Notes under the pieces: generated by a model
Told to the model about the DNA's origin: nothing
The model's database searches: none
The model's input: only the letters and a program-made list of their open reading frames with translations
DNA from: Verrucomicrobiota bacterium
GTDB taxonomy: Bacteria > Verrucomicrobiota > Verrucomicrobiia > Opitutales > Coraliomargaritaceae
NCBI GenBank assembly: GCA_039815375.1
Contig: JBCBZJ010000013.1
Coordinates: 56,957-80,956 of the forward strand
Direction of reading: 5' to 3'
Length of the DNA: 24,000 nt
Shown: positions 11,148 through 21,706 of the stretch, one piece after another
Layout of the letters: every line of letters starts with the position of its first letter
How positions within the stretch are numbered: position 1 is the first letter of the stretch
Translations under genes and position numbers: made by a program

Positions 11148-11591
11148 TTAGTCTGTGTGAGCTTCGTCGTTCCAGTCTTCGCTCTCTTTACTCTCTTCGT
11201 CGGTGCGAACCCCATCGATCACAACGTTTACCTGAGAGACATTCTTACTGGTCATTTTTTCGACCTGTTCGGCAATACGCTGCTGAATTTGAGTTGCGAC
11301 TGAGGCGAGTTCTACGCCGAAGCGTAATATGACGCGAATCTCGATTCGATAGTCGCCAACTTCGTCTTCTTCGACGCGGACGCCACGCTCATCACCCTTC
11401 TTGGAGAAAATTTCAGCGATCCCGTCGACAAATCCACCGCCTACTGCCGCGACGCCGGCGACTTCAAGTGCAGCAAGACGGACGATACTGGCAACGACGC
11501 TATGGTTGATGCGAATATCGCCAAGCGTATTAGAGTCTTCAGATACAGTTGGGATGGAAGACTCGTTCTGGTTTTCAGTTTCCTTACTCAT
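11148..11591 (-). CDS. Asp23/Gls24-family envelope stress protein
   Basis: 147 aa: [27 protein letters not shown]...[44 protein letters not shown]...VNVVIDGV. This is the canonical Asp23 (DUF322) pattern. Confidence 0.85.
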
Positions 11592-11618
11592 AATGGCCGG
11601 AGTGTAGAGTTGTAGAGT

Positions 11619-12983
11619 TTATGTGTAAATATCCTTCGGAACGCGCTGAATAAATTCTTCAATGAACTTTGTCGTCGCCTTGCCCTCGCGGAAATTCGGA
11701 TCGCGGATGATTGCGCGACTGAAGGGAATGTTGGTCTTGATGCCTCGAATCAGGTATTCACCCAGTGCGCGATCCATGCGGTCAAGTGCGAGATCACGAG
11801 TCTTACCAAAGGTCATGACCTTGGCGATCATGCTGTCGTAGTGCGGCGGTATAGTATAGCCGCTGTAGACGTGGGAGTCGATACGGACACCGTGACCTCC
11901 GGGAGAGTAATAGAGGCTGATTTCGCCCGGGCATGGTGCGAAATTGCGGCCCGGATCCTCGGCGCATACCCGGCATTCTATGGCATGGCGGAGGAACTTG
12001 ATGTCCTTTTGCTCGTAGTTCAGTTTCTGACCACCGGCGATGAGAATCTGCTCCTTAACGAGATCAACACCTGTGATTTCTTCGGTCACACCGTGCTCCA
12101 CCTGAATACGGGTGTTCATCTCAATGAAGTAGTAGTTTTGCTTCTCGTCCATCAGGAACTCAATAGTCCCTGCTCCTTCATAATTGACGGATTTTGCTAG
12201 TTTTACCGCATCGCGCCCCATCTTTTTGCGGGTTTCCGGGCTGATGAAAGGTGAGGGAGCTTCTTCAATAACCTTTTGGTGGCGCCTTTGAACAGAGCAG
12301 TCGCGCTCGCCTAGATGGATGACATTGCCATATTGGTCACCAAGAACCTGGATCTCGATGTGGCGTGGTGCATCCAGGAATTTCTCGATGTAGACAGCGC
12401 CGTTTCCAAAGGCCTTTTCGGCTTCGCTGCGAGCACTGTTGTATTCCTTGGTGAAAGCAATCGCATTGTGTGCAGTCCGCATGCCTTTACCGCCGCCTCC
12501 TGCAACTGCTTTAATAATGACCGGGAAGCCAATGCCCTCAGCGACGGCAAGTGCGTCTTTCTCATTGTCGACTGTTCCTTCGCTACCGGGTATAACCGGG
12601 ACCTTGGCCTTAACGGCCATTTCCCGGGCGCGTGCTTTGTCGCCAAAGTTGGTGATCGCATCCGAGCTCGGTCCAATGAACTTGATTTTGCAGTTTTCGC
12701 ACTGTTCGGCGAAGTCTGCGTTTTCTGCGAGGAAGCCATAGCCCGGGTGGATTGCATCGACGTCAGCGATTTCTGCTGCAGCAATGATACGGTCAGCCTT
12801 CAGGTAGCTTTCATTGCTCGGCGGTGGCCCGATGCAGATCGCCTCGTCGGCTAGCTGGACGTGAAGGGACTGCTCGTCAGCCTCAGAGTAGACGCAGAGG
12901 GTTTTGATCCCGAGTTCGTTACAGGCGCGGACGATACGCAGGGCGATCTCGCCGCGATTGGCGATGAGGACTTTTTTGATCAT
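11619..12983 (-). CDS. accC: acetyl-CoA carboxylase, biotin carboxylase subunit
   Basis: 454 aa: [26 protein letters not shown]..., the ATP-grasp glycine loop [11 protein letters not shown], and [14 protein letters not shown]. Confidence 0.97.
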
Positions 12984-12991
12984 CCAGTGCG

Positions 12992-13462
12992 CTACGCGGT
13001 TTTAACTTTGAAGAGCGGTTGGCCGTATTCCACAGCTTCGCCATTCTCAACAAGCAGTTCGGTGATTGTGCCACTTATTTCGGACTGAATCTCGTTCATC
13101 ACTTTCATTGCCTCAATGATACAAACGATAGAGTCTGCACTGACTTTTTTGCCAATATCTGTGAACGGGGGGCTCTCTGGAGAGGGAGAACGGTAAAAAG
13201 TGCCGACCATTGGCGAGGTGATGAAGGAAATGCCAGCTTCTTCCACGGGCTCTGCCGCCGGTGCATCGGCTACTGGTGCGGTAGCAGGAGCTGTAGGGAT
13301 AGGAGCTGCTGCCTGAGGAACCGGAGCAGCCTGAATAATCTGCGGCGCATCCCCGTTTTTACGGCTTAGTCGTAGCTTGAAGCCCTCTTCTTCGAATTCG
13401 AATTCAGAGAGCTCGGAGCGTTTCATCAAATCGACGACTTGCTTGATTAGTTTAATGTCCAA
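12992..13462 (-). CDS. accB: acetyl-CoA carboxylase, biotin carboxyl carrier protein
   Basis: 156 aa with a Pro/Ala-rich linker, the biotinylation motif [11 protein letters not shown] and a lipoyl/biotinyl fold tail. It lies 8 bp upstream of accC. Confidence 0.95.
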
Positions 13463-13644
13463 GGTAATTCCTTTGTTTTGTCCTAGTTTCGTGAGGCGGT
13501 TTTCCTCGGAGAGGTCTCCGGAGTAATCCTGTGATGTAAGGGGAGCTTTTCGAGTTGTGCAACGACTTTGTTGCGCGGCAAATCAGCTTTGGCAGGAGCA
13601 AAATAGTGCTTTTACTTCTTCTCCTGTAGATTCATGTTAAGCCT
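13463..13644. promoter_or_regulatory. divergent intergenic region (accBC operon / KASIII cassette promoters presumed) containing a 6-2-6 inverted repeat
   Basis: At 182 bp this is the largest non-coding gap in the window. The inverted repeat CGGAGA-gg-TCTCCG lies at 13507-13520, 45-58 nt upstream of the accB ATG. Confidence 0.35.
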
Positions 13645-14721
13645 ATGCCTAAGTGCAGCTTCGAAGGAATTAGAGTCGGTGGGGTCGTGACCTGTGTGCC
13701 CCAGCGTGAGCGTTGTATTGATGAAGAGGTCGAGCTTTTCGGCGGAAATGAGAAGCAAATTGCCCGTCTTAAGAAGACGATTGGTTTGGATCGCCGTCGT
13801 GTGGTTGATGATTCTACGACGGCTGCTGACCTTTGCGAAGCGGCAGCAAGAAGGCTACTGCCAGCATGTGATCTGGAATCTTCGGATATTGATGCGGTCA
13901 TTTGCGTGACACAGACCCCCGACTACCCTCAACCTTGCAATGCTGCTGTCTTGCATGGGAAACTGGGACTACCCAAGAATTGTGCCGCACTTGATGTGAA
14001 CCTTGGTTGCTCGGGCTATGTATATGGTTTGTGGTTGGCCTTCATGATGATCAGCTCTGGAGGGTGCAAGCGCGTCTTGTTGCTCGCTGGAGATACGATA
14101 AGTCGCCTGGTTAATAAACGGGACCGTTCTGTTGCGTCACTTTTTGGGGATGGCGGCAGCGCTACCATGATAGAGCAGTCTGATGGTGCAGGGACCTCAT
14201 GGATGAGCATGGATACAGATGGCACCGGGTTTGACCGTCTAATCGTTCCCGCTGGAGGGGCACGTCACCCGCACTCTGCCGAAACCCATCTCGAAGCTGA
14301 GGATGATGCCGGTAACCTTAGGTCCAAAGAGAATCTCTTTATGGATGGTGCCGAGGTTTTTAATTTTTCGATCAGCGAGGAACCCAAGGCAGTGTCCGAT
14401 CTTTTAGACTTTGCGGGAATCGAAATAGACGACGTTGATCACTTTGTTTTTCATCAGGCTAACCGTTATATCCTTTCAAATATTGCAAAGCGATTAGAGA
14501 TTGATCCAGCTAAAGTTCCGATGCGAACGGTGGAACGTTTTGGCAATCAAAGTTCGGCGTCGATACCTTCGGCACTATGTTCTGAGCTTGGCGACCTTTT
14601 GAGCTTGGATGCGGGGCGGCAGGTTTTGCTTTCTGGTTTTGGAGTTGGCTTGTCCTGGGCAACGGCATTGCTTCCGATCTCGAGTCTTAGAGTGTGCGAG
14701 GTTATCGATTACAAAGCTTGA
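13645..14721 (+). CDS. 3-oxoacyl-ACP synthase III (KASIII/FabH)-like condensing enzyme, non-canonical subfamily
   Basis: 358 aa. The Cys-His-Asn triad contexts are all present: [21 protein letters not shown] and [11 protein letters not shown] (canonical FabH has GNTSAAS here). It is not adjacent to other fab genes. Confidence 0.85.
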
Positions 14722-14769
14722 ACTTCTTCGGTTGCTTCTCGCTTATCGCTAATCCATTTTCTTTAGGAT

Positions 14770-15006
14770 ATGGAATTGGAACAGTTTATTCGTGATTTTG
14801 AGGCGGCAATTGAGGATCTGCCCGTGGGCAGCCTTACTGCAGAATCGCATTTCCGTAAATTAGAGCAATGGGACTCTCTTGCAGTGCTGACTGTTATTGC
14901 TATGGCCAATAGTGAGTACGGCTTTGCTCTTAAAGCGCGCGACTTGAAGCGCTTTGATACCGTGGAAGCGTTATTCGCTTTTATTGAATCATCACAGAAC
15001 CCATGA
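14770..15006 (+). CDS. acyl carrier protein (phosphopantetheine-binding)
   Basis: 78 aa acidic helical protein with the Ser attachment motif in LEQWDSLAVLTVIAM. Its stop overlaps the next gene's start (ATGA at 15003-15006). Confidence 0.75.
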   Translation: MELEQFIRDFEAAIEDLPVGSLTAESHFRKLEQWDSLAVLTVIAMANSEYGFALKARDLKRFDTVEALFAFIESSQNP

Positions 15007-15635
15007 AGCGCTTGATCATTGTTGGTGCCGGAGGTTTTGGTCGCGAAGTCTACGCATGGGCCAAGGATCATAAGGACTGCGGCACACTATGGGAGGTGGT
15101 TGGTTTTCTGGATGATGACCCATTTGCGCTCAATGCATTTGAATACCCGGTTGGTATTCTGGGTTCCATTGATACTTATGTAATCGGACCAGACGACATT
15201 TTCTTGTGTGCAATCGGTTCGCCAAAAGTAAAAAAGGTTGTTGTCGGTCGTATGCTGGCCAGAGGAGCAGATTTTATGACTTTGGTTCATCCTACAGTGG
15301 TCGTCGGTGAAAATGTTATGATTGCTGTTGGGACGATCGTTTGTCCGGGCGCGGTCATCACCTGTGATATTACAATCGGTCGATTTGTTGCGGTGAACTG
15401 CCTAAGCAGTATCGGACACGATGTGAAGGTGGGTGACTGGGCAACCATTAGTGGTCATTGTGACTTGACCGGAAAGTCCTCGATAGGCGAGGGCAGTTTT
15501 TTAGGGAGCGGTTCACGTATCCTGCCCGGAAAATCGGTAGGATCAGAAGCACTTGTGGGTGCGGGGTCAGTCGTTCTTAATTCGGTTTCGGATGGAAAAA
15601 AGGTATTCGGCAACCCGGCGCAGCCATTCTCCTAG
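15003..15635 (+). CDS. NeuD/PglD-family sugar N/O-acyltransferase (left-handed beta-helix, hexapeptide repeats)
   Basis: 210 aa. The N-terminal Rossmann-like segment MKRLIIVGAGGFGREVYAWA...VVGFLDDDP is typical of the NeuD/PglD family. The C-terminal hexapeptide repeats are IGENV, IGRFV, VGDWA, IGEGS, LGSGS and VGAGS. Confidence 0.85.
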   Translation: MKRLIIVGAGGFGREVYAWAKDHKDCGTLWEVVGFLDDDPFALNAFEYPVGILGSIDTYVIGPDDIFLCAIGSPKVKKVVVGRMLARGADFMTLVHPTVVVGENVMIAVGTIVCPGAVITCDITIGRFVAVNCLSSIGHDVKVGDWATISGHCDLTGKSSIGEGSFLGSGSRILPGKSVGSEALVGAGSVVLNSVSDGKKVFGNPAQPFS

Positions 15636-16330
15636 TTTTCAGGGAGGCTGCCGGGCTTTTCGAGGCCGATTTCTGCCAGTCCATCGAGAAGAGTTTGAAA
15701 ACCCTCCATACCTTTAAGTTCTTCGATCATTTTGTTGCTTGATAGGCGAATGAAAAACTGTTCCTGCCTCAAATTTAGACCGTGCTTTTGGATATCAATC
15801 AAGGCGCCGAATATATTGTGTCCGCCCTTTTGGTCATATCCAAATGCGACTCCGCCGACCAAGTGCCAAAAGTAAACATTTTCAACATTACCGTTTTTCT
15901 CGAATATCCCAAATTCAGCAGGTTGAAAATCTGCCGATGCCGAGTTGAACGGTATACCGTATTCACGGTCTAAACGAGTCCATCCGTTTTGAACCCAGCA
16001 AGTATCTGGTGTGTGTGCACCGGCCCAGCGATAGGAGGCTTTTCCTGGTGTCCAATAGGCAATGTATAGACTTACGATAGTGTCGCTTTTCTGAAAAACG
16101 CGGAATAAGGAGTCATCAAATTTGAGAAAATCGCTGACTCGAGCCGCTGCTTCCGGTGAGTTCGACATTTTCATATCACGCACTTTCCACCCTTTTAATT
16201 CTGAAGGAAAAAGATCGGATAGTTGATCTTGCAGTGTCGCTGTTGGCGGCAAGGTGAAAACAAAATAAGCCCTGAGTCCCAGGGATGCGGCCAGAATTGC
16301 GAACGCGACGACAAGAAGAATCTTTTTCAT
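15632..16330 (-). CDS. EpsI-family (exosortase-associated, DUF3485-like) protein
   Basis: N-terminal TM MKKILLVVAFAILAASLGL, then FPSELKGWKVRDM...VSLYIAYWTPGK...GAHTPDTCWVQNGW...VYFWHLVGG...FFIRLSS. This matches my memory of the EpsI pattern (lgGW.g.d, LyiAYy, H.P..C.pg.GW, v.YW). I prefer the ATG at 16330 over the GTG at 16357. Confidence 0.7.
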   Translation of the reverse strand: MKKILLVVAFAILAASLGLRAYFVFTLPPTATLQDQLSDLFPSELKGWKVRDMKMSNSPEAAARVSDFLKFDDSLFRVFQKSDTIVSLYIAYWTPGKASYRWAGAHTPDTCWVQNGWTRLDREYGIPFNSASADFQPAEFGIFEKNGNVENVYFWHLVGGVAFGYDQKGGHNIFGALIDIQKHGLNLRQEQFFIRLSSNKMIEELKGMEGFQTLLDGLAEIGLEKPGSLPEN

Positions 16331-16461
16331 TTTGCACCCACGATGTGACCACACCACTTTTACGTCAATACTCTGAGGGACTTAAGATTGCCTGTGGTCA
16401 GAAAATATGCGTTTCCTCTCTATACGCTTCCAATATCGCAAATATTTTCGATCAATAGATT
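16331..16461. promoter_or_regulatory. divergent intergenic region (EpsI-like gene / Wzy_C-TPR operon promoters presumed)
   Basis: 131-bp AT-rich gap between divergent starts. It contains the near-palindrome CGCAAATATTTTCG at 16437-16450. Confidence 0.3.
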
Positions 16462-18414
16462 ATGCCCTCCTTAATTGATAGGTCTGGTAATGTCCAATTT
16501 TTTGGTCAGCTATCTTGGGCTAATTTCCTCGATTGGCTGATTACCTTATGCCTTGCCGCTATTCTAGTGATTACTTCTCTCCAGCTGGGCGGTGTTCGGC
16601 CGGAGACTCAGCATTCTGTTCTGCCACTGTATGCTATCCTTCTCTTGCTCCATGGTCTTTGGATCGCCATTGATAAGGAAAGGCCTCGCCGGATTAGTCC
16701 AGGTCCGGTCCTTTTTTTACCCTTCCTTATTTTCGCGTCGCTCAGCTTTTACTTTTTAAGCCCGGTTCCCTGGCGCGCATCTTATGAATTAACCTATTTC
16801 TTTGGCATATTCATATTTATTTGGGTCGCAGTAAATAACGTGCGGAGTCGAGCGCATTTATTGATTTTGATACTTATGGCGCTGATTCCGGCAGGGAGTG
16901 CATCTCTTATCGGTTTTTACCAGTTTTTCCAGGACTCCACTCAGGTAGCGAGTGCATCGGTCGGTTATGCATTGGAATTGAATCAACAGTACTTTGGAAG
17001 GGCTACAGGTATTTTCGCTGATCCAAATAGCTTCGCCGCCTACCTTCTTGCTCTTTTGCCCTGTTTTATAATAGCGGCCCTTGTGCCCCGGCTCCCGATC
17101 ATCTTAAGAGTGCTTTGTTTTTATGTGGGTCTAGTTCTGCTGGCAGGTATTACCTTTACGCAAACATATTGGGCTGCCGCTTCGGTCGTCATTTTGATGG
17201 CTATCTTGCCCTGGTTTTGTTTCAAAAAAAAGTCCTTACGGGTGCTTTCTTCCATGCTGGTAGTTGGTTCGGCTCTGGTGGTCTTCCTGTTGATGTTTCT
17301 GGTAAGCCCATCATTTCAACGTGGTTTCGCGCGTGCGCTGAGCACGGATGGCGAAGCTGTAAGAATTGTTTTATGGCAAGAGGGCCTTCGTAGTCTATCG
17401 CGAAGTCCTTTCCTTGGCTCAGGTGGAGGCACCTATGCTTTTCAACTAGATCATAGTGACTCTCTCTCAATTCCTTATGGTCCTGTAACGCCGCAAAATG
17501 ATTACATGCTTATTTTGGGGCAATATGGGTTACTTGGTGGAGCTCTTTTGTTCGTGCCTGGCTTTTACCTGATTTTAAGAGCTTACCTACGCTGGAAATC
17601 TGAGGCATTTGACAGAAAGCTAAAGGGGCAGCGCGAGAGGGTGATGTCACCACAGAAGTTTTTTCTTTCAATTGCGACTAGCGGAATTCTGGCTCTTCTC
17701 ATTGCGGCCTTTTTTACTTCTGTGCTTTATATTCCGGGGTTGCTGCTCTTTGGAGCCCTGCTCTTTTCTGTCCTAGTTAAGCTCAGCTTCAGTCGCACTC
17801 TGAACCTGCCGAATTTTCGTTTTGCAGGCCTGTCTTATTTGTCTATCGCCGCATTGTTTGGTGTAGTTTTCTGGATAAATTCCAGCTCTAGTATTGAATC
17901 CCAAGCATACGAGTTACGGGCTCGGCAGAGCCTTAATAAACTTGTGGAAAAGCGGGTTCCCATCTCAGGCAATATTGAGCTAATCGAAAATACCATTCAT
18001 AGGTTCAAAGATGCTGTAGTTATCGACCCGAACAATGCTGACGCTTGGATTGGTCTGAGCTCAGCGATTTGCCAGCTTTACTACAGTAGGCCTGAAGAAT
18101 TTGAAGCAATCGCGTCTCGTGCCGTCTCGGCTGCGTCCCGTGCCTACGAGATATGTCCGGAATATTGGCTATCATCAGCGCAGTTGGGTATTGCCCTTGC
18201 ACTGGGCGGAGAGCTCGAAGACGCTCGCTCTGCGCTGGAACGCTCTGTAGCAATGGCGCCAAACAGCAGTAATGCACATTATTATCTGGCTTCTTACCTT
18301 AGCGTTTTTCCGGAAGAGAGGGAGGGCGCGATTGAGCACGTCGGCCTGTCGCTTGAGATTAATCCGCGTAATGCGGCGGCTTTAAAACTGCAGCGTAAAC
18401 TTTTGATTCTTTAG
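16462..18414 (+). CDS. O-antigen ligase/polymerase-like (Wzy_C) polytopic membrane protein fused to C-terminal TPR repeats
   Basis: 650 aa with about 10-12 hydrophobic helices. Wzy_C-like loop and helix segments are GRATGIFADPNSFAAYLLALLP and PQNDYMLILGQYGLLGG. The C-terminal soluble ~180 aa carries TPR-like repeats (NADAWIGLSSAICQLY..., EYWLSSAQLGIALALGGELEDARSALERSVAMAPNSSNAHYYLASYL). Confidence 0.8.
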   Translation: MPSLIDRSGNVQFFGQLSWANFLDWLITLCLAAILVITSLQLGGVRPETQHSVLPLYAILLLLHGLWIAIDKERPRRISPGPVLFLPFLIFASLSFYFLSPVPWRASYELTYFFGIFIFIWVAVNNVRSRAHLLILILMALIPAGSASLIGFYQFFQDSTQVASASVGYALELNQQYFGRATGIFADPNSFAAYLLALLPCFIIAALVPRLPIILRVLCFYVGLVLLAGITFTQTYWAAASVVILMAILPWFCFKKKSLRVLSSMLVVGSALVVFLLMFLVSPSFQRGFARALSTDGEAVRIVLWQEGLRSLSRSPFLGSGGGTYAFQLDHSDSLSIPYGPVTPQNDYMLILGQYGLLGGALLFVPGFYLILRAYLRWKSEAFDRKLKGQRERVMSPQKFFLSIATSGILALLIAAFFTSVLYIPGLLLFGALLFSVLVKLSFSRTLNLPNFRFAGLSYLSIAALFGVVFWINSSSSIESQAYELRARQSLNKLVEKRVPISGNIELIENTIHRFKDAVVIDPNNADAWIGLSSAICQLYYSRPEEFEAIASRAVSAASRAYEICPEYWLSSAQLGIALALGGELEDARSALERSVAMAPNSSNAHYYLASYLSVFPEEREGAIEHVGLSLEINPRNAAALKLQRKLLIL

Positions 18415-18417
18415 GAA

Positions 18418-19323
18418 ATGAACCGGGATTGGATCTTATTGCTTTTTCTTCTGATTTTAAGGCCGTTTGATGTAGGTGCAGAAACCACATTTCGAGGCTC
18501 GGTAGCTGTCTTGGAAGCCAGCCCGAAAGTTCATTTGTCAGTTCTTGGCTACGAGGGCAGTTCGTTTACACCAGTCGCCTTGCCACAATACCTCCCTGGT
18601 TTGTTTTCGGCTACTGGAACTCAGGAAGATTACCTCTTTCTGCGCACTTCGAACCGAATGAATCTCTTTTTTGAGGGAGCTGGTTTTTTCGCCGTGGAAC
18701 GCTTTGAATATGTAGCAGAATCCGATCCGTCGGTGAGCGAAGAACTAAAGGTGCTCCAGAGCCGGATGATATTGAATTTGCGGAAAGGTCTACTCTTGGT
18801 GGATTGTGTTGAACTTTGCGAGGAATCTCAACTTTTTGTTGAGGCACCATTCGGTCAGGTCGCCGGTTCCGGGGCTAAATGGTTTATAGAGATTGCATTA
18901 GATCCGCGCAGCGGGATTTACGGTTTTACCATTGCCTGCCAAGAGGGTCTGGTTCGTTTGACTGACCTGAGAGGCGAGGTCTATTTGATCTATCCGGGGC
19001 AGCGTCTGGCCGGTGCGGGCAGTTCGAGTGCGCCGGCAATCGAGGTCGGCGAGCCTACCGATCATTCGCGTCAACTCTTCAAGAATTTTGAGGAACTGTT
19101 AATGAAGCACGACATGACTAAGCTCGACCATGCAGCATTGCGTCAACAGATGCTGGTGCTGGGGGAATCTACCGCTGCAGAATCGGCTCTTACGGATGAT
19201 TCAGGTGCTCCGAAATCTAACAAGCGCCCTGTTGTTATTGAGTTTTCGCCTCGTGCACCGGAATTGACTCCTTTTCGCGGTGAGGTGTGCCCGCCTTCCG
19301 ATGCCCAAGTGGATTTATTTTAG
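18418..19323 (+). CDS. secreted protein, FecR-like beta-sandwich domain (tentative)
   Basis: 301 aa with signal peptide MNRDWILLLFLLILRPFDVGA. The alternating-strand pattern YLFLRTSNRMNLFFEGAGFFAVE...ILNLRKGLLLVD...LFVEAPFGQVAGSGAKWFIEI...CQEGLVRLTDLRGEVYLIYPGQ fits the FecR-domain layout by eye. It starts 3 bp after the upstream stop and overlaps the cyclase start. Confidence 0.5.
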   Translation: MNRDWILLLFLLILRPFDVGAETTFRGSVAVLEASPKVHLSVLGYEGSSFTPVALPQYLPGLFSATGTQEDYLFLRTSNRMNLFFEGAGFFAVERFEYVAESDPSVSEELKVLQSRMILNLRKGLLLVDCVELCEESQLFVEAPFGQVAGSGAKWFIEIALDPRSGIYGFTIACQEGLVRLTDLRGEVYLIYPGQRLAGAGSSSAPAIEVGEPTDHSRQLFKNFEELLMKHDMTKLDHAALRQQMLVLGESTAAESALTDDSGAPKSNKRPVVIEFSPRAPELTPFRGEVCPPSDAQVDLF

Positions 19324-21706
19324 AAAATTGAAAGGATTGAAGCAATCTGGCCTTTACGCTTTGCTGGTCCTGGCTTCATCGGCAGTTTGGATTGTATTGG
19401 GCAGCTCTGGGCTCTTGGACGGTATTGATCAGGAGGTCATGAGATGGCGCTATCTTGCGAGGGGTGAGATTGAGACGAAAGACAACATCGTCTATGTCGA
19501 TCTGGATGCTGAAACCGTTTCTTATATGGGGCATCGGCCGTGGGATCGCAGAGAGTTTGGCCGCGTTCTCGCAGCTCTTTTGGGTCCGGGTGGAGCCAGA
19601 ACCGTGGCGGTTGATATCATCTTTTCAAAGTATGGTGCGAGCACGATGCTTGATCTGGATCGTGCACGAAAAGGGGACTTCTTTTTGGGGCAAATAGTAG
19701 AAAAGTATAAGGATAAAGTGGTCTTGGCTGCAGCCTATACAGGAGTGATTAATACTCTGGCTGCTGAGAGTGCCGACAGGCTGCCGCTGATTCGGGATGG
19801 CAACTACGATCCCGAAACGAACACTTTTCCTGAGGCACCAACGTTCCCGATTATTAATCTCGATGTCGGGCGTTTGGGAATAGCGAATGTTGATGAGGCA
19901 CTGAGTCGGGGGCCGATTCCCCTCTTTGTTCCCGCATTTATCGAGTTTGATAGCCCTCGTTACAGTTTTTTGCTGATGGATGGTTTAACCCGCCATTTCA
20001 GCTTAGTCCTGAATGAGGAGCTCAGGCCGGCCGTTTTAGGGGATCAAGTTACCATCCAAAGTAGTGATGGTTGGTTTAGCAAGCAGCTGCCTCTAAATAC
20101 CAAGACGACGCTTTTTAGCTTAGGTTTGGAGGCTTTTCTTGTTGCGCATGGTCTCGGACGAACAGCGGTTGAGTTCGAAGGCAGTACGCTGTCGATTCGC
20201 ATGAGCGAAGAAGAAACCATACGTATACCATTGGTTCAGTCACAGTCGATTGAAGTGAATTGGTTCGAAGGTTGGGATACGAGTCAGGGCAATGAAAGAG
20301 TAAGTATGCGCGAGGTTCTGGAACGAGCTGATGCGCTGGCAAAGGCTGCAAATGCGAACGATACTTCTACCCTCAAAACTTTGCGCGAGTGGTTTAGCCA
20401 ATTCAATGATAAGGTCATCTTTCTTGGGCCGGTTGACCCTCAGTTGAAAGATATTGCTCCGACACCATTCAATCGAGTGCCTGTTCCTAAGGTGTTGCTG
20501 CATGCCAATGTTTTTCGCACGATTGAGTCCGGCGAGTTTATTCTGAGAGTATCATCTTTGGTCTCCGCTCTGAGTGTTCTTCTGCTTACTGTTGGGGTTG
20601 CATGTTTGGCCCTTGGTAATCGATGGTTACGGATTTGTTCAGTAGGCGTCTTTATCGGCTACATCGGATTCGTATTTGTGGTTTTTTCCTCTTCGAATCT
20701 AGTCCTTCCTCTCGTCTCGCCTGTAGGTTCTGCCCTCACCGCAACCATTTTTGTTATTCTGATCCGTATTGGTTCCGAAGAGTGGCAGCGTCGTCGTATT
20801 AAGAATCTATTCGGTGCTTACGTCTCTCCAAGCTTGGTTAATGATATGGTCGAATCCCATCGAGACCCTGAGCTTGGCGGAACAGAAGCTGAGGTGACGG
20901 CCCTTTTTTCCGATGTCGAGGGGTTTTCTTCGCTTTCGGAAGAGTTGAAGCCGAACGAACTGGTCGCTCTTATGAACGAATATCTCGGTGAAATGACTGA
21001 GACTTTTCAGGCGGAACAAGGCACCCTGGACAAGTATATCGGCGATGCCATTGTGACGATGTTTGGCATGCCCTATCCGGTTGACGATCATGCTGCGCGT
21101 GCCTGTCGATCAGCACTCGCTATGCAAGAACGCCATGCTGCACTTCGAGAACAATGGAGGGAAGATGGCAAGTGGCCGGAAAAGGTGCTGCAGATGCGCA
21201 CTCGAATCGGTATCAACACCGGGGTTGCTGTTATCGGGAACATGGGAAGTGAAATGCGTTTCAACTACACAATGATGGGGGATTCGGTAAACCTCGCTGC
21301 TCGATGCGAAAGTGGGGCAAAGAGCTACGGAGTGTATACCATGGTCACGGCGTCGACGCTCGAGGCTGCTTTGCGGGAGAACCTGGAATTGCACTATCGC
21401 AAGTTGGATCGTGTTGTCGTTAAAGGTCGGAGTCGGCCGGTTGAAATCTACGAGCTATGGGATGCCTCCTATGATTTAACGAAGGCTCGATCTTGTCGTG
21501 CGAAGTATGAGCAAGCGCTTCAAGCGTATTTCGACGGCGATTGGGAAAATGCGCTTTTGGGCTTCGAAGCGTCTTCAGCTGATGAGCCCGGTCAGGAGTT
21601 TGCGCCAATCACGCCATCTGAACTTCTCGCGGAACGTTGCCGAGAGTTCATTAAGAACGGCTCTCCGGAGAATTGGGATGGCGTCTACCGGATGAAAACG
21701 AAATAA
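19301..21706 (+). CDS. CHASE2 sensor domain-containing class III adenylate cyclase
   Basis: N-terminal TM (GLYALLVLASSAVWIVLG), a ~380 aa extracytoplasmic CHASE2-type region (IVYVDLDAETV...VAVDIIFS), then 3 TM helices. The cyclase core is ALFSDVEGFSSLSE...LDKYIGDAIVTMFG...RIGINTGVAVIGNMGS...NYTMMGDSVNLAARCES. I prefer the ATG at 19301 (MPKWIYFRKL) over the GTG at 19280. Confidence 0.9.
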   Translation: MPKWIYFRKLKGLKQSGLYALLVLASSAVWIVLGSSGLLDGIDQEVMRWRYLARGEIETKDNIVYVDLDAETVSYMGHRPWDRREFGRVLAALLGPGGARTVAVDIIFSKYGASTMLDLDRARKGDFFLGQIVEKYKDKVVLAAAYTGVINTLAAESADRLPLIRDGNYDPETNTFPEAPTFPIINLDVGRLGIANVDEALSRGPIPLFVPAFIEFDSPRYSFLLMDGLTRHFSLVLNEELRPAVLGDQVTIQSSDGWFSKQLPLNTKTTLFSLGLEAFLVAHGLGRTAVEFEGSTLSIRMSEEETIRIPLVQSQSIEVNWFEGWDTSQGNERVSMREVLERADALAKAANANDTSTLKTLREWFSQFNDKVIFLGPVDPQLKDIAPTPFNRVPVPKVLLHANVFRTIESGEFILRVSSLVSALSVLLLTVGVACLALGNRWLRICSVGVFIGYIGFVFVVFSSSNLVLPLVSPVGSALTATIFVILIRIGSEEWQRRRIKNLFGAYVSPSLVNDMVESHRDPELGGTEAEVTALFSDVEGFSSLSEELKPNELVALMNEYLGEMTETFQAEQGTLDKYIGDAIVTMFGMPYPVDDHAARACRSALAMQERHAALREQWREDGKWPEKVLQMRTRIGINTGVAVIGNMGSEMRFNYTMMGDSVNLAARCESGAKSYGVYTMVTASTLEAALRENLELHYRKLDRVVVKGRSRPVEIYELWDASYDLTKARSCRAKYEQALQAYFDGDWENALLGFEASSADEPGQEFAPITPSELLAERCREFIKNGSPENWDGVYRMKTK

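Follow-up and report, generated by a model that had tools for sequence, protein, structure and literature searches.

A reduced KASIII, acyl carrier protein and VioB-type transferase cassette predicted to take part in amino-sugar N-acylation in a member of the Coraliomargaritaceae

A three-gene cassette with a predicted role in acyl transfer

Three adjacent genes in a 24-kb window of a Verrucomicrobiota genome (Coraliomargaritaceae; assembly GCA_039815375.1, contig JBCBZJ010000013.1, positions 56,957 to 80,956), the window being the whole stretch of DNA analysed, encode a paralogue of the condensing enzyme beta-ketoacyl-acyl carrier protein synthase III (KASIII), a dedicated acyl carrier protein (ACP), here called ACP1, and a left-handed beta-helix (LbH) N-acyltransferase of the NeuD/PglD/VioB family. 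This cassette probably provides, at a likelihood that we place near 0.7, both the acyl donor and the enzyme that transfers it in a pathway for N-acylation of a nucleoside diphosphate (NDP)-linked 4-amino-4,6-dideoxy sugar of the bacillosamine or viosamine type for a surface glycan. The reading draws on gene identities, catalytic residues, paralogy with FabH, homology with the viosamine island of Pseudomonas syringae, carrier-domain fusions and gene neighbourhoods, all of which come from the present analysis. The cassette comprises the following features (coordinates of the window; lengths in amino acids, aa):

13463..13644, no strand: intergenic region between the divergently transcribed accB (minus strand) and KASIII genes, where the cassette promoter is presumed to lie (open reading frame map, sequence)
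13645..14721, plus strand: KASIII paralogue, a FabH-like condensing enzyme of glycan-locus clade B, 358 aa, with the triad Cys122/His270/Asn301 (Pfam, alignment, tree)
14770..15006, plus strand: dedicated ACP (ACP1), 78 aa, with Ser36 in WDSLA as the predicted phosphopantetheine site (PP-binding)
15003..15635, plus strand: NeuD/PglD/VioB-family LbH N-acyltransferase, 210 aa, with an N-terminal PglD_N domain and predicted catalytic His139 (TIGR03570)

An open reading frame map combined with profile searches of the window proteins yielded 27 clear genes, and the frames of the KASIII, ACP and transferase coincided exactly with those delimited in an earlier sequence-only reading of this DNA, as did the ATGA at 15003-15006 in which the ACP stop codon overlaps the transferase start. 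A scan of 13300-16600 for consensus promoters and terminators returned counts no higher than those in shuffled sequence, and operon boundaries were not drawn from it. The mapping of the trio in other genomes, which that reading had recommended, recovered the order KASIII-ACP-transferase in more than 20 related genomes, at identities of 55-73% for KASIII, 33-78% for the ACP and 44-68% for the transferase; given this recurrence, the three genes are more than chance open reading frames. A KASIII, a private ACP and a VioB/PglD-type transferase are also encoded together in Pseudomonas, Acidobacteriota, Planctomycetota and others. As had been noted from the sequence, the profile searches found no reductase, dehydratase, aminotransferase or glycosyltransferase in the 24-kb window. 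The sugar aminotransferase and 4,6-dehydratase that could supply an acceptor are thus not adjacent to the cassette; both are encoded elsewhere in the genome, and in the relatives' loci L080, L119, L120, L133 and L154 DegT and PglF-like genes adjoin it.

A condensing enzyme distinct from housekeeping FabH

The condensing enzyme exceeded the Pfam cut-offs for both ACP_syn_III (73 bits) and ACP_syn_III_C (89 bits) and matched KASIII structures over its full length, the best Protein Data Bank (PDB) match being 4efi (3.7e-83). The motifs GCSGY, HQANRY and GNQSSAS, in which the sequence-only reading had recognised an intact catalytic triad, correspond to Cys122, His270 and Asn301, and the triad is invariant in 56 aligned KASIII sequences. 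The divergence from the housekeeping FabH signature claimed at the same time was likewise borne out, with scores of 213 bits against a cut-off of 292 for TIGR00747 and 238 against 249 for NF006829. A separate housekeeping fabH scoring 430 bits, above the cut-off, lies on another contig of the genome, and its product is 32% identical to the cassette enzyme. Among the relatives, housekeeping fabH was present in 41 of the 41 searched and the cassette KASIII in 37 of 61; within the genus, one of eight other genomes carries the latter. The best matches of the cassette KASIII bear the names Opitutales, Puniceicoccaceae, Lentimonas and Coraliomargarita.

In a maximum-likelihood tree (quick search) of 56 sequences from the loci gathered in this analysis, a long branch with 100% support parts housekeeping FabH from all KASIII genes that adjoin transferases of this kind. 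The glycan-locus enzymes fall into two clades: clade A, encoded 3' of the transferase, includes the Pseudomonas enzymes, and clade B, encoded 5' of the transferase and supported at 95%, includes the window enzyme; where a locus has two KASIII genes, each clade contributes one. PDB chains and Flavobacterium psychrophilum sequences were left out of the tree, as were two KASIII-like genes of the same genome (on contigs C12 and C37) that were too divergent to align. The phylogeny called for in the sequence-only reading therefore stands for the separation of a glycan-locus clade from FabH, whereas DarB and PqsD, like the solved KASIII structures, were compared by score only. The separate fabH and the fully supported branch together run counter to the outcome named there as fatal, namely that the enzyme clusters with FabH in a genome with no other fabH.

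Two loci of genus g16 in the same family (L047 and L050) have a KASIII gene next to accB whose product is 65-66% identical to the window enzyme, with no ACP or transferase found downstream by tblastn; this KASIII is a remnant or else an enzyme that now serves another purpose.

The carrier protein and the transferase

The small protein that follows the KASIII had been read as its own 78-aa ACP with the serine in WDSLA, and this assignment was confirmed by a PP-binding match of 27.8 bits (cut-off 20.8) and by the conserved WDS: residues W34-D35-S36-L37 are invariant in 25 orthologues. ACP1 is not of the housekeeping AcpP type (19 bits versus 84), and it has the WDS(I/L)A site in common with the acp product of the viosamine island in Pseudomonas caricapapayae. 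A prediction of the complex between the transferase trimer and ACP1, both supplied as alignments, gave a score of 0.00, which counts neither for nor against binding.

The transferase scored 188.3 bits against the TIGR03570 (NeuD/PglB/VioB) cut-off of 160.8, with further matches to PglD_N (41.5 bits) and Hexapep (48.7 bits), and is the sole gene of the genome above the TIGR03570 cut-off. Its best solved match, over the full length, is Acinetobacter baumannii VioB (7txp, 1e-34). The predicted catalytic His139 aligns with the histidine of VioB and of Neisseria PglB-ATD and is invariant in 32 relatives; we take it to correspond to the catalytic histidine of the LbH domain that is His125 in Campylobacter jejuni PglD. 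The structures 3bss, 4m98, 4ea7 and 7txp are those of PglD, PglB-ATD, PerB and A. baumannii VioB, all acetyl-CoA-dependent N-acetyltransferases.

For the window enzyme, gene context and carrier-domain fusions argue for an ACP-borne acyl donor in preference to acetyl-CoA. An exhaustive search for relatives of the transferase yielded 593 representatives at E values up to 1e-30. Among the 26 long proteins in the top 150 representatives, three are fusions, and the remainder consist mostly of transferase units repeated in tandem. The fusion P0183 joins a PP-binding domain to an LbH domain, P0237 joins AMP-binding, PP-binding and LbH domains, and P0273 is a truncated form of the P0237 layout; all three are among the closest relatives of the transferase (39-43% identity), and P0237 lies in a polysaccharide locus, 3' of a PglC-type gene. 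Eighty loci of named genomes were mapped by profile searches, and 47 of these extend at least 3.5 kb on both sides of the transferase. A KASIII gene occurs within 4 kb of the transferase in 34 of the 47; where it is missing, five of the 13 loci have an AMP-dependent ligase (AMP-ligase) instead. Outside the Verrucomicrobia the proportion is 14 of 16, commonly with a short-chain dehydrogenase/reductase (SDR), DegT and PglF, in loci that include those of Pseudomonas, Blastocatellia, Planctomycetota, Geobacteraceae, Acetomicrobium and Terracidiphilus. One metagenome contig (L080) carries, in order, SDR, AMP-ligase, KASIII, a 78-aa ACP, a ketoreductase (KR), an LbH transferase 48% identical to that of the window, DegT and a PglF-like dehydratase.

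As a separate observation, many close relatives of the transferase, among them P0127-P0131 and P0144, contain two to four tandem copies of the whole PglD-like unit in one polypeptide (four in P0129, of 865 aa), and are either real fusions or gene-calling artefacts.

Known counterparts

The closest described system is the viosamine island of P. syringae pv. tabaci 6605, which comprises vioA, vioM, vioT, vioS, vioB, vioR and acp (Yamamoto et al., 2011; PMC3927599). That paper gives the island's product on flagellin as d-Quip4N(3-hydroxy-1-oxobutyl)2Me, that is, N-(3-hydroxybutanoyl)-2-O-methylviosamine, which is lost in vioA, vioB, vioR and vioT mutants, and it names VioB a dTDP-viosamine acetyltransferase, with dTDP-N-acetoacetylviosamine listed as an intermediate (PMC3927599). 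A locus of P. caricapapayae (L148) has the order histidine kinase, acp, SDR, transferase of 213 aa, KASIII of 338 aa, genes of 1173 and 241 aa, and an aminotransferase, and its gene sizes agree with those of acp, vioR, vioB, vioS, vioT, vioM and vioA in Table 1 of that paper (PMC3927599). Both systems combine a KASIII, a small private ACP with WDS(I/L)A and a VioB-type LbH transferase; VioB of P. caricapapayae is 44% identical to the window transferase and its VioS is 40% identical to the window KASIII, and in each case the start of the transferase gene overlaps the preceding stop codon, which belongs to vioR in the island and to the ACP gene in the window. In the island, the ketoreductase gene vioR stands in a row with genes for an aminotransferase, a methyltransferase and a glycosyltransferase, none of which is in the window; the island differs further in the placement of its KASIII in clade A rather than clade B, and in its flagellin target, whereas the neighbours in the window are EpsI-like and WaaL-like/tetratricopeptide repeat (TPR) genes. 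The OrfA-D region of the flagellin glycosylation island of P. aeruginosa PAK is homologous to the viosamine island. Comparable genes may also be present in the flagellar glycosylation locus of C. jejuni.

A second counterpart is found in F. psychrophilum, where wfpC and wfpE encode ketoacyl synthases (KAS), wfpD an ACP, wfpF a KR and wfpG a PglD homologue (Cisar et al., 2019; PMC6519341). The proposed product is a 3,5-dihydroxyhexanoyl group on UDP-Qui2NAc4N, with transfer from the ACP to the PglD homologue stated explicitly, and strains without the acyl genes carry other pglD homologues (PMC6519341). As in the window, KASIII genes of the wfpC-wfpG set, which occurs with pglE/pglF, would build the chain, a locus-specific ACP would act as donor and a PglD homologue is predicted to transfer. 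The wfp set, however, has two KAS genes and a ketoreductase and lies inside an O-antigen cluster, while the window has one KAS, no reductase and a position outside any glycan cluster; the likeness drawn here is one of gene content.

More distant comparisons concern single components. PglD, PglB-ATD, PerB and A. baumannii VioB share with the window transferase the two-domain architecture, the trimeric LbH family and the catalytic histidine, but use acetyl-CoA and have no ACP or KASIII partner, whereas the clade of the window transferase is linked, and even fused, to carrier domains. LpxA and LpxD, LbH enzymes that move 3-hydroxyacyl groups from ACP to a UDP-sugar, offer a mechanistic precedent for an ACP-borne donor, although they match only weakly through the hexapeptide repeats (38-47 bits, below the cut-off), have another N-terminal domain and transfer long chains from the housekeeping AcpP. 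A trio of ACP, 3-oxoacyl-ACP reductase and AMP-dependent synthetase has been described in Aeromonas and enterobacterial flagellin glycosylation islands (PMC7874193, PMC4875605). It has the same parts as a gene set on contig C62 of the present genome (described below) and as the genes directly 5' of the KASIII in relatives, but it is uncharacterised and lies in pseudaminic-acid islands, with no KASIII or VioB-type transferase reported beside it.

The sequence-only reading had called an ACP-borne donor for a PglD homologue unusual. This point needs correcting in that such a donor had already been put forward for WfpG/WfpD (PMC6519341), and the viosamine island of P. syringae implies one (PMC3927599). 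The kind of system was thus known from genetics in 2011 and from an explicit prediction in 2019, and the cassette is an expected member of a widespread module; its distinguishing features are the three-gene form without a ketoreductase, the clade-B enzyme as sole KASIII, the dispersal of the partners and the fixed site beside EpsI-like and WaaL-like genes.

A model for amino-sugar acylation and its alternatives

These comparisons allow a model to be outlined, in which inference covers the nature of the primer, the length and oxidation state of the acyl chain, the sugar that accepts it, and the glycan finally made with its destination. ACP1 would be converted to its holo form by a phosphopantetheinyl transferase (PPTase) and malonylated by the housekeeping FabD. 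The KASIII would load a short acyl primer on Cys122, either from acetyl-CoA or as an acyl group produced by the operon on C62 that encodes a second ACP (ACP2), an SDR and an AMP-ligase, and would condense it with malonyl-ACP1 to a 3-oxoacyl-ACP1 (acetoacetyl-ACP1 if the primer is acetyl). Because the cassette has no ketoreductase of its own, the 3-oxoacyl group might be used directly or be reduced by an SDR encoded elsewhere, possibly the C62 SDR or FabG. The transferase would bind the NDP-amino sugar in its N-terminal domain and, with His139 as base, pass the acyl group from ACP1 to the 4-amino group of the sugar, after which a PglC-like phosphoglycosyl transferase encoded on C62 could start the glycan on a lipid carrier. 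That a short acyl group might be built on the private ACP and handed to an amino sugar had been suggested from the sequence; this suggestion gains comparative backing from the viosamine-island homology, and the ACP-borne donor appears well supported because the homology with VioB, the carrier-domain fusions and the neighbourhoods with KASIII, SDR, DegT and PglF, found in many phyla, all point to it.

Several points weigh against this model. We know of no biochemical test, for any member of the family, that shows a PglD/VioB-type enzyme using acyl-ACP over acyl-CoA, and the solved relatives (A. baumannii VioB, PglD and PerB) are acetyl-CoA enzymes. There is no sugar-nucleotide gene in the window, and the acceptor is therefore guessed from relatives. 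The maximum-likelihood tree places the window KASIII in clade B, which is sister to the clade of VioS, so that it is not an orthologue of the genetically linked enzyme; vioS itself, moreover, is not among the mutants described (PMC3927599). As no ketoreductase accompanies the cassette, its product may be unlike any N-acyl sugar described so far. Finally, orthologues of the AMP-ligase also occur in congeners without the KASIII cassette, so that their link to the module is not obligatory.

The order of events could also be the reverse, with the transferase acting as an acetyl-CoA N-acetyltransferase and the KASIII and ACP then extending the sugar-bound N-acetyl group to N-acetoacetyl, to be reduced where a reductase is present. 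The use of acetyl-CoA by all solved relatives of the transferase fits such a scheme. The primer of a KASIII, however, must be held as a thioester on the active-site cysteine, and by established FabH chemistry an acetyl group bound as an amide could not be loaded, which makes this order chemically unlikely for a KASIII; nor would carrier domains fused to the transferase make sense if acetyl-CoA were the donor. The acetylate-first, extend-on-sugar order is what Yamamoto et al. appear to propose, in keeping with their designation of VioB and with the intermediate that they list (PMC3927599), whereas Cisar et al. propose direct transfer from the ACP (PMC6519341). On balance, we regard the reverse order as improbable. 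A comparably low likelihood attaches to a non-condensing role, in which the KASIII would prime ACP1 by transferring to it an acyl group from CoA or ACP2, and the transferase would deliver this group unextended. Some KASIII-like proteins are indeed acyltransferases, and the AMP-ligase/ACP2/SDR set, which congeners without the KASIII also possess, could make an acyl group alone. Yet the decarboxylative Cys-His-Asn triad is invariant in 42 of 42 glycan-locus KASIII sequences, whereas non-condensing relatives usually lose the Asn or the Cys. In addition, loci have one or two KASIII genes, in parallel with the acyl groups of four carbons in P. syringae and six in F. psychrophilum, the clades of the F. 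psychrophilum enzymes being set aside.

The acceptor itself could be something other than a nucleotide sugar: the amine or hydroxyl might belong to a lipid head group, a peptide or a small metabolite, for example, and the product would be an N-acyl compound unrelated to glycans. This scenario, for which the window offers the lack of a sugar-nucleotide gene and a site flanked by accBC and signalling genes, is the least probable of those considered, given that the transferase keeps the PglD_N nucleotide-sugar domain and exceeds the cut-off of the NeuD/PglB/VioB family, and that its relatives adjoin DegT, PglF-like and PglC-like genes and sit inside polysaccharide loci.

N-acyl groups on amino sugars shape the recognition of bacterial surfaces by phages, grazers and immune systems. 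To our knowledge, the enzymology of the longer N-acyl groups has never been shown, nor has the use of acyl-ACP by a PglD/VioB-type enzyme been demonstrated. With a single condensing enzyme, carrier and transferase and no reductase, the cassette is about the simplest system in which transfer from ACP to sugar could be reconstituted, and the carrier-domain fusions are among the strongest comparative arguments for an ACP-donor mechanism. A cassette without a reductase could possibly yield an N-acetoacetyl (3-oxo) sugar, a compound that we know of only as a proposed pathway intermediate of the viosamine island.

Locus architecture in relatives

Synteny was compared in a sample of 20 related loci with long flanks. 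The common order is accC, accB (minus strand), KASIII, ACP, an optional SDR, the transferase, an EpsI-like gene (minus strand), a Wzy_C/TPR gene, a secreted FecR-like protein and, often, a CHASE2 cyclase, and the junction between accB and KASIII is kept in 11 of the 20. An SDR of 240-250 aa (adh_short_C2, KR) stands between ACP and transferase in nine of the 23 loci that have all three genes; the other 14 have none at this position, and these include the window and its one cassette-bearing congener. As the window has no SDR at all, a dedicated 3-oxoacyl-ACP reductase is missing from it, and many relatives additionally have a 98-aa protein, an SDR and an AMP-ligase encoded directly 5' of the KASIII. 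The window cassette is the most reduced form of this modular set. It had been described as stand-alone; this description is not quite apt, as the usual partners (ACP2-SDR-AMP-ligase, PglC-like, DegT and PglF-like) are present in the genome but dispersed.

In the closest congener (L038, genome G005), compared with 11148-21706 of the window, AccC is 94% and Asp23 91% identical, KASIII 73%, the transferase 68%, EpsI 70%, the Wzy_C/TPR protein 59% and the FecR-like protein 49%. Such a drop in identity across the locus is typical of a segment for surface structures that evolves fast while its flanks stay conserved.

Envelope-associated neighbours and apparent replacement at the site

Downstream of the cassette, two genes recur in relatives, and further EpsI-like genes were located at other loci:

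15632..16357, minus strand: orphan EpsI-like (DUF3485) envelope protein, convergent with the transferase gene and sharing a CTAG stop with it (DUF3485, 54 bits)
16462..18414, plus strand: Wzy_C (O-antigen-ligase-like) membrane protein with C-terminal TPR repeats (Wzy_C, 51 bits, and TPR)
L130:10587-11357 and L185:4984-5700: EpsI-like genes elsewhere

The EpsI-like gene, whose true start may be the ATG at 16330, is one of two DUF3485 copies in the genome, the other being fused to an exosortase on contig C56. No exosortase is adjacent to the window copy, the three exosortases of the genome lying on other contigs. The gene downstream of Wzy_C/TPR (hyp301, 18418-19323) was considered as a hidden exosortase and rejected, as its product has a signal peptide and no multi-pass membrane region. 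The EpsI-like gene adjoins the transferase in 14 of the 20 family loci. Of 31 loci labelled Verrucomicrobia, 21 have such a gene within 4 kb of the transferase, against none of the 16 others. The layout of the EpsI-like gene varies, being convergent with the transferase in Puniceicoccaceae and inside the operon, between the transferase and DegT, in freshwater Opitutae. Synteny of the Wzy_C/TPR gene holds in 13 of 20 family loci, and the gene is kept in congeners without the cassette; its product is a candidate user of the acylated glycan. A functional link between the EpsI-like gene and the cassette is likewise a matter of inference only.

At the same site, a different EpsI-like gene (34-38% identical, in opposite orientation) lies between accB and Wzy_C/TPR in five genomes that lack the cassette KASIII, four of them congeners and the fifth from another genus. 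The site also carries, on the other strand, a NeuD/PglD-family transferase of another kind (145 bits). In L185 (G008:C60), L186 (G001:C24), L187 (G007:C36) and L188 (G014:C1), the divergent EpsI-like gene is found in all four and the different transferase in three, G001 being the exception. The EpsI type co-varies with the module in congeners, the KASIII-ACP-VioB-like set going with EpsI type 1 and a plain PglD-like gene with EpsI type 2. By analogy with the serotype-type replacement of F. psychrophilum (PMC6519341), this exchange looks like allelic replacement of an acylation module.

The EpsI link is the least expected feature of the locus. It might mean that in Opitutales an N-acyl-sugar module is coupled to an orphan EpsI-like protein and a WaaL/PglL-like TPR ligase, the acylated sugar serving as a recognition element and the glycan being attached to envelope proteins or lipids without an adjacent exosortase. 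Such coupling is suggested by the two operon layouts, the restriction of DUF3485 to two genes and the co-switching of types, and we consider it a long shot; if true, it would give EpsI-family proteins their first concrete ligand. The recurring link to EpsI-like and WaaL-like genes also gives a starting point for studying what EpsI-family proteins do in Verrucomicrobia.

Partner genes elsewhere in the genome

The dispersed partners and the main glycan clusters of the genome are as follows:

C62:135385-138280 (L203:9383-12280), minus strand: operon of four genes, flanked by nusA/infB and further housekeeping genes, that encode a PglC-type phosphoglycosyl transferase (195 aa), a protein of 98 aa, an SDR and an AMP-ligase
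C11:316000-348000 (L093, L094): large polysaccharide cluster that encodes the PglF-like dehydratase of 616 aa, several glycosyltransferases, a sulfotransferase, a small acetyltransferase of the hexapeptide type and a DUF4838 protein of 850 aa
C40:1-6512 (L092): pseudaminic-acid cluster of PseB, PseC, PseF, PseG and NeuB, its first gene interrupted by contig ends, with one part on C7 and the other on C40

The SDR and AMP-ligase of C62 are 75% and 55% identical, respectively, to the genes that stand 5' of KASIII in relatives. The 98-aa protein, missed by Pfam, has the carrier-protein motif LDSM, and on account of this motif it is read as a putative second ACP, the ACP2 of the model. Of the 34 genomes with the cassette KASIII, 31 have an orthologue of the AMP-ligase, as do nine of the 27 without it; the related genomes not being independent, this amounts only to a tendency. 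A search for an orthologue of the ketoreductase that some relatives have in the cassette found none in this genome, the best match being 33% identical. The genome encodes five DegT aminotransferases, the one 616-aa PglF-like dehydratase, two PglC-type transferases and two PPTase genes. The DegT gene on C51 was set aside as a clue to the acceptor, as it lies beside ATP-binding cassette (ABC) exporters and unrelated genes.

The C40 cluster was also considered as the destination of the window transferase, which would then act on a Pse5(acyl)7Fm-type sugar. This assignment was not adopted, as nothing connects the two loci and the closest contexts among relatives are of the bacillosamine/viosamine type. 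In its own right, the C40 cluster has a PseG-like protein fused to a formyltransferase domain, a second formyltransferase-C protein at the position of PseH and a PIG-L de-N-acetylase after NeuB, a composition that suggests an N-formylated, re-acylated pseudaminic acid.

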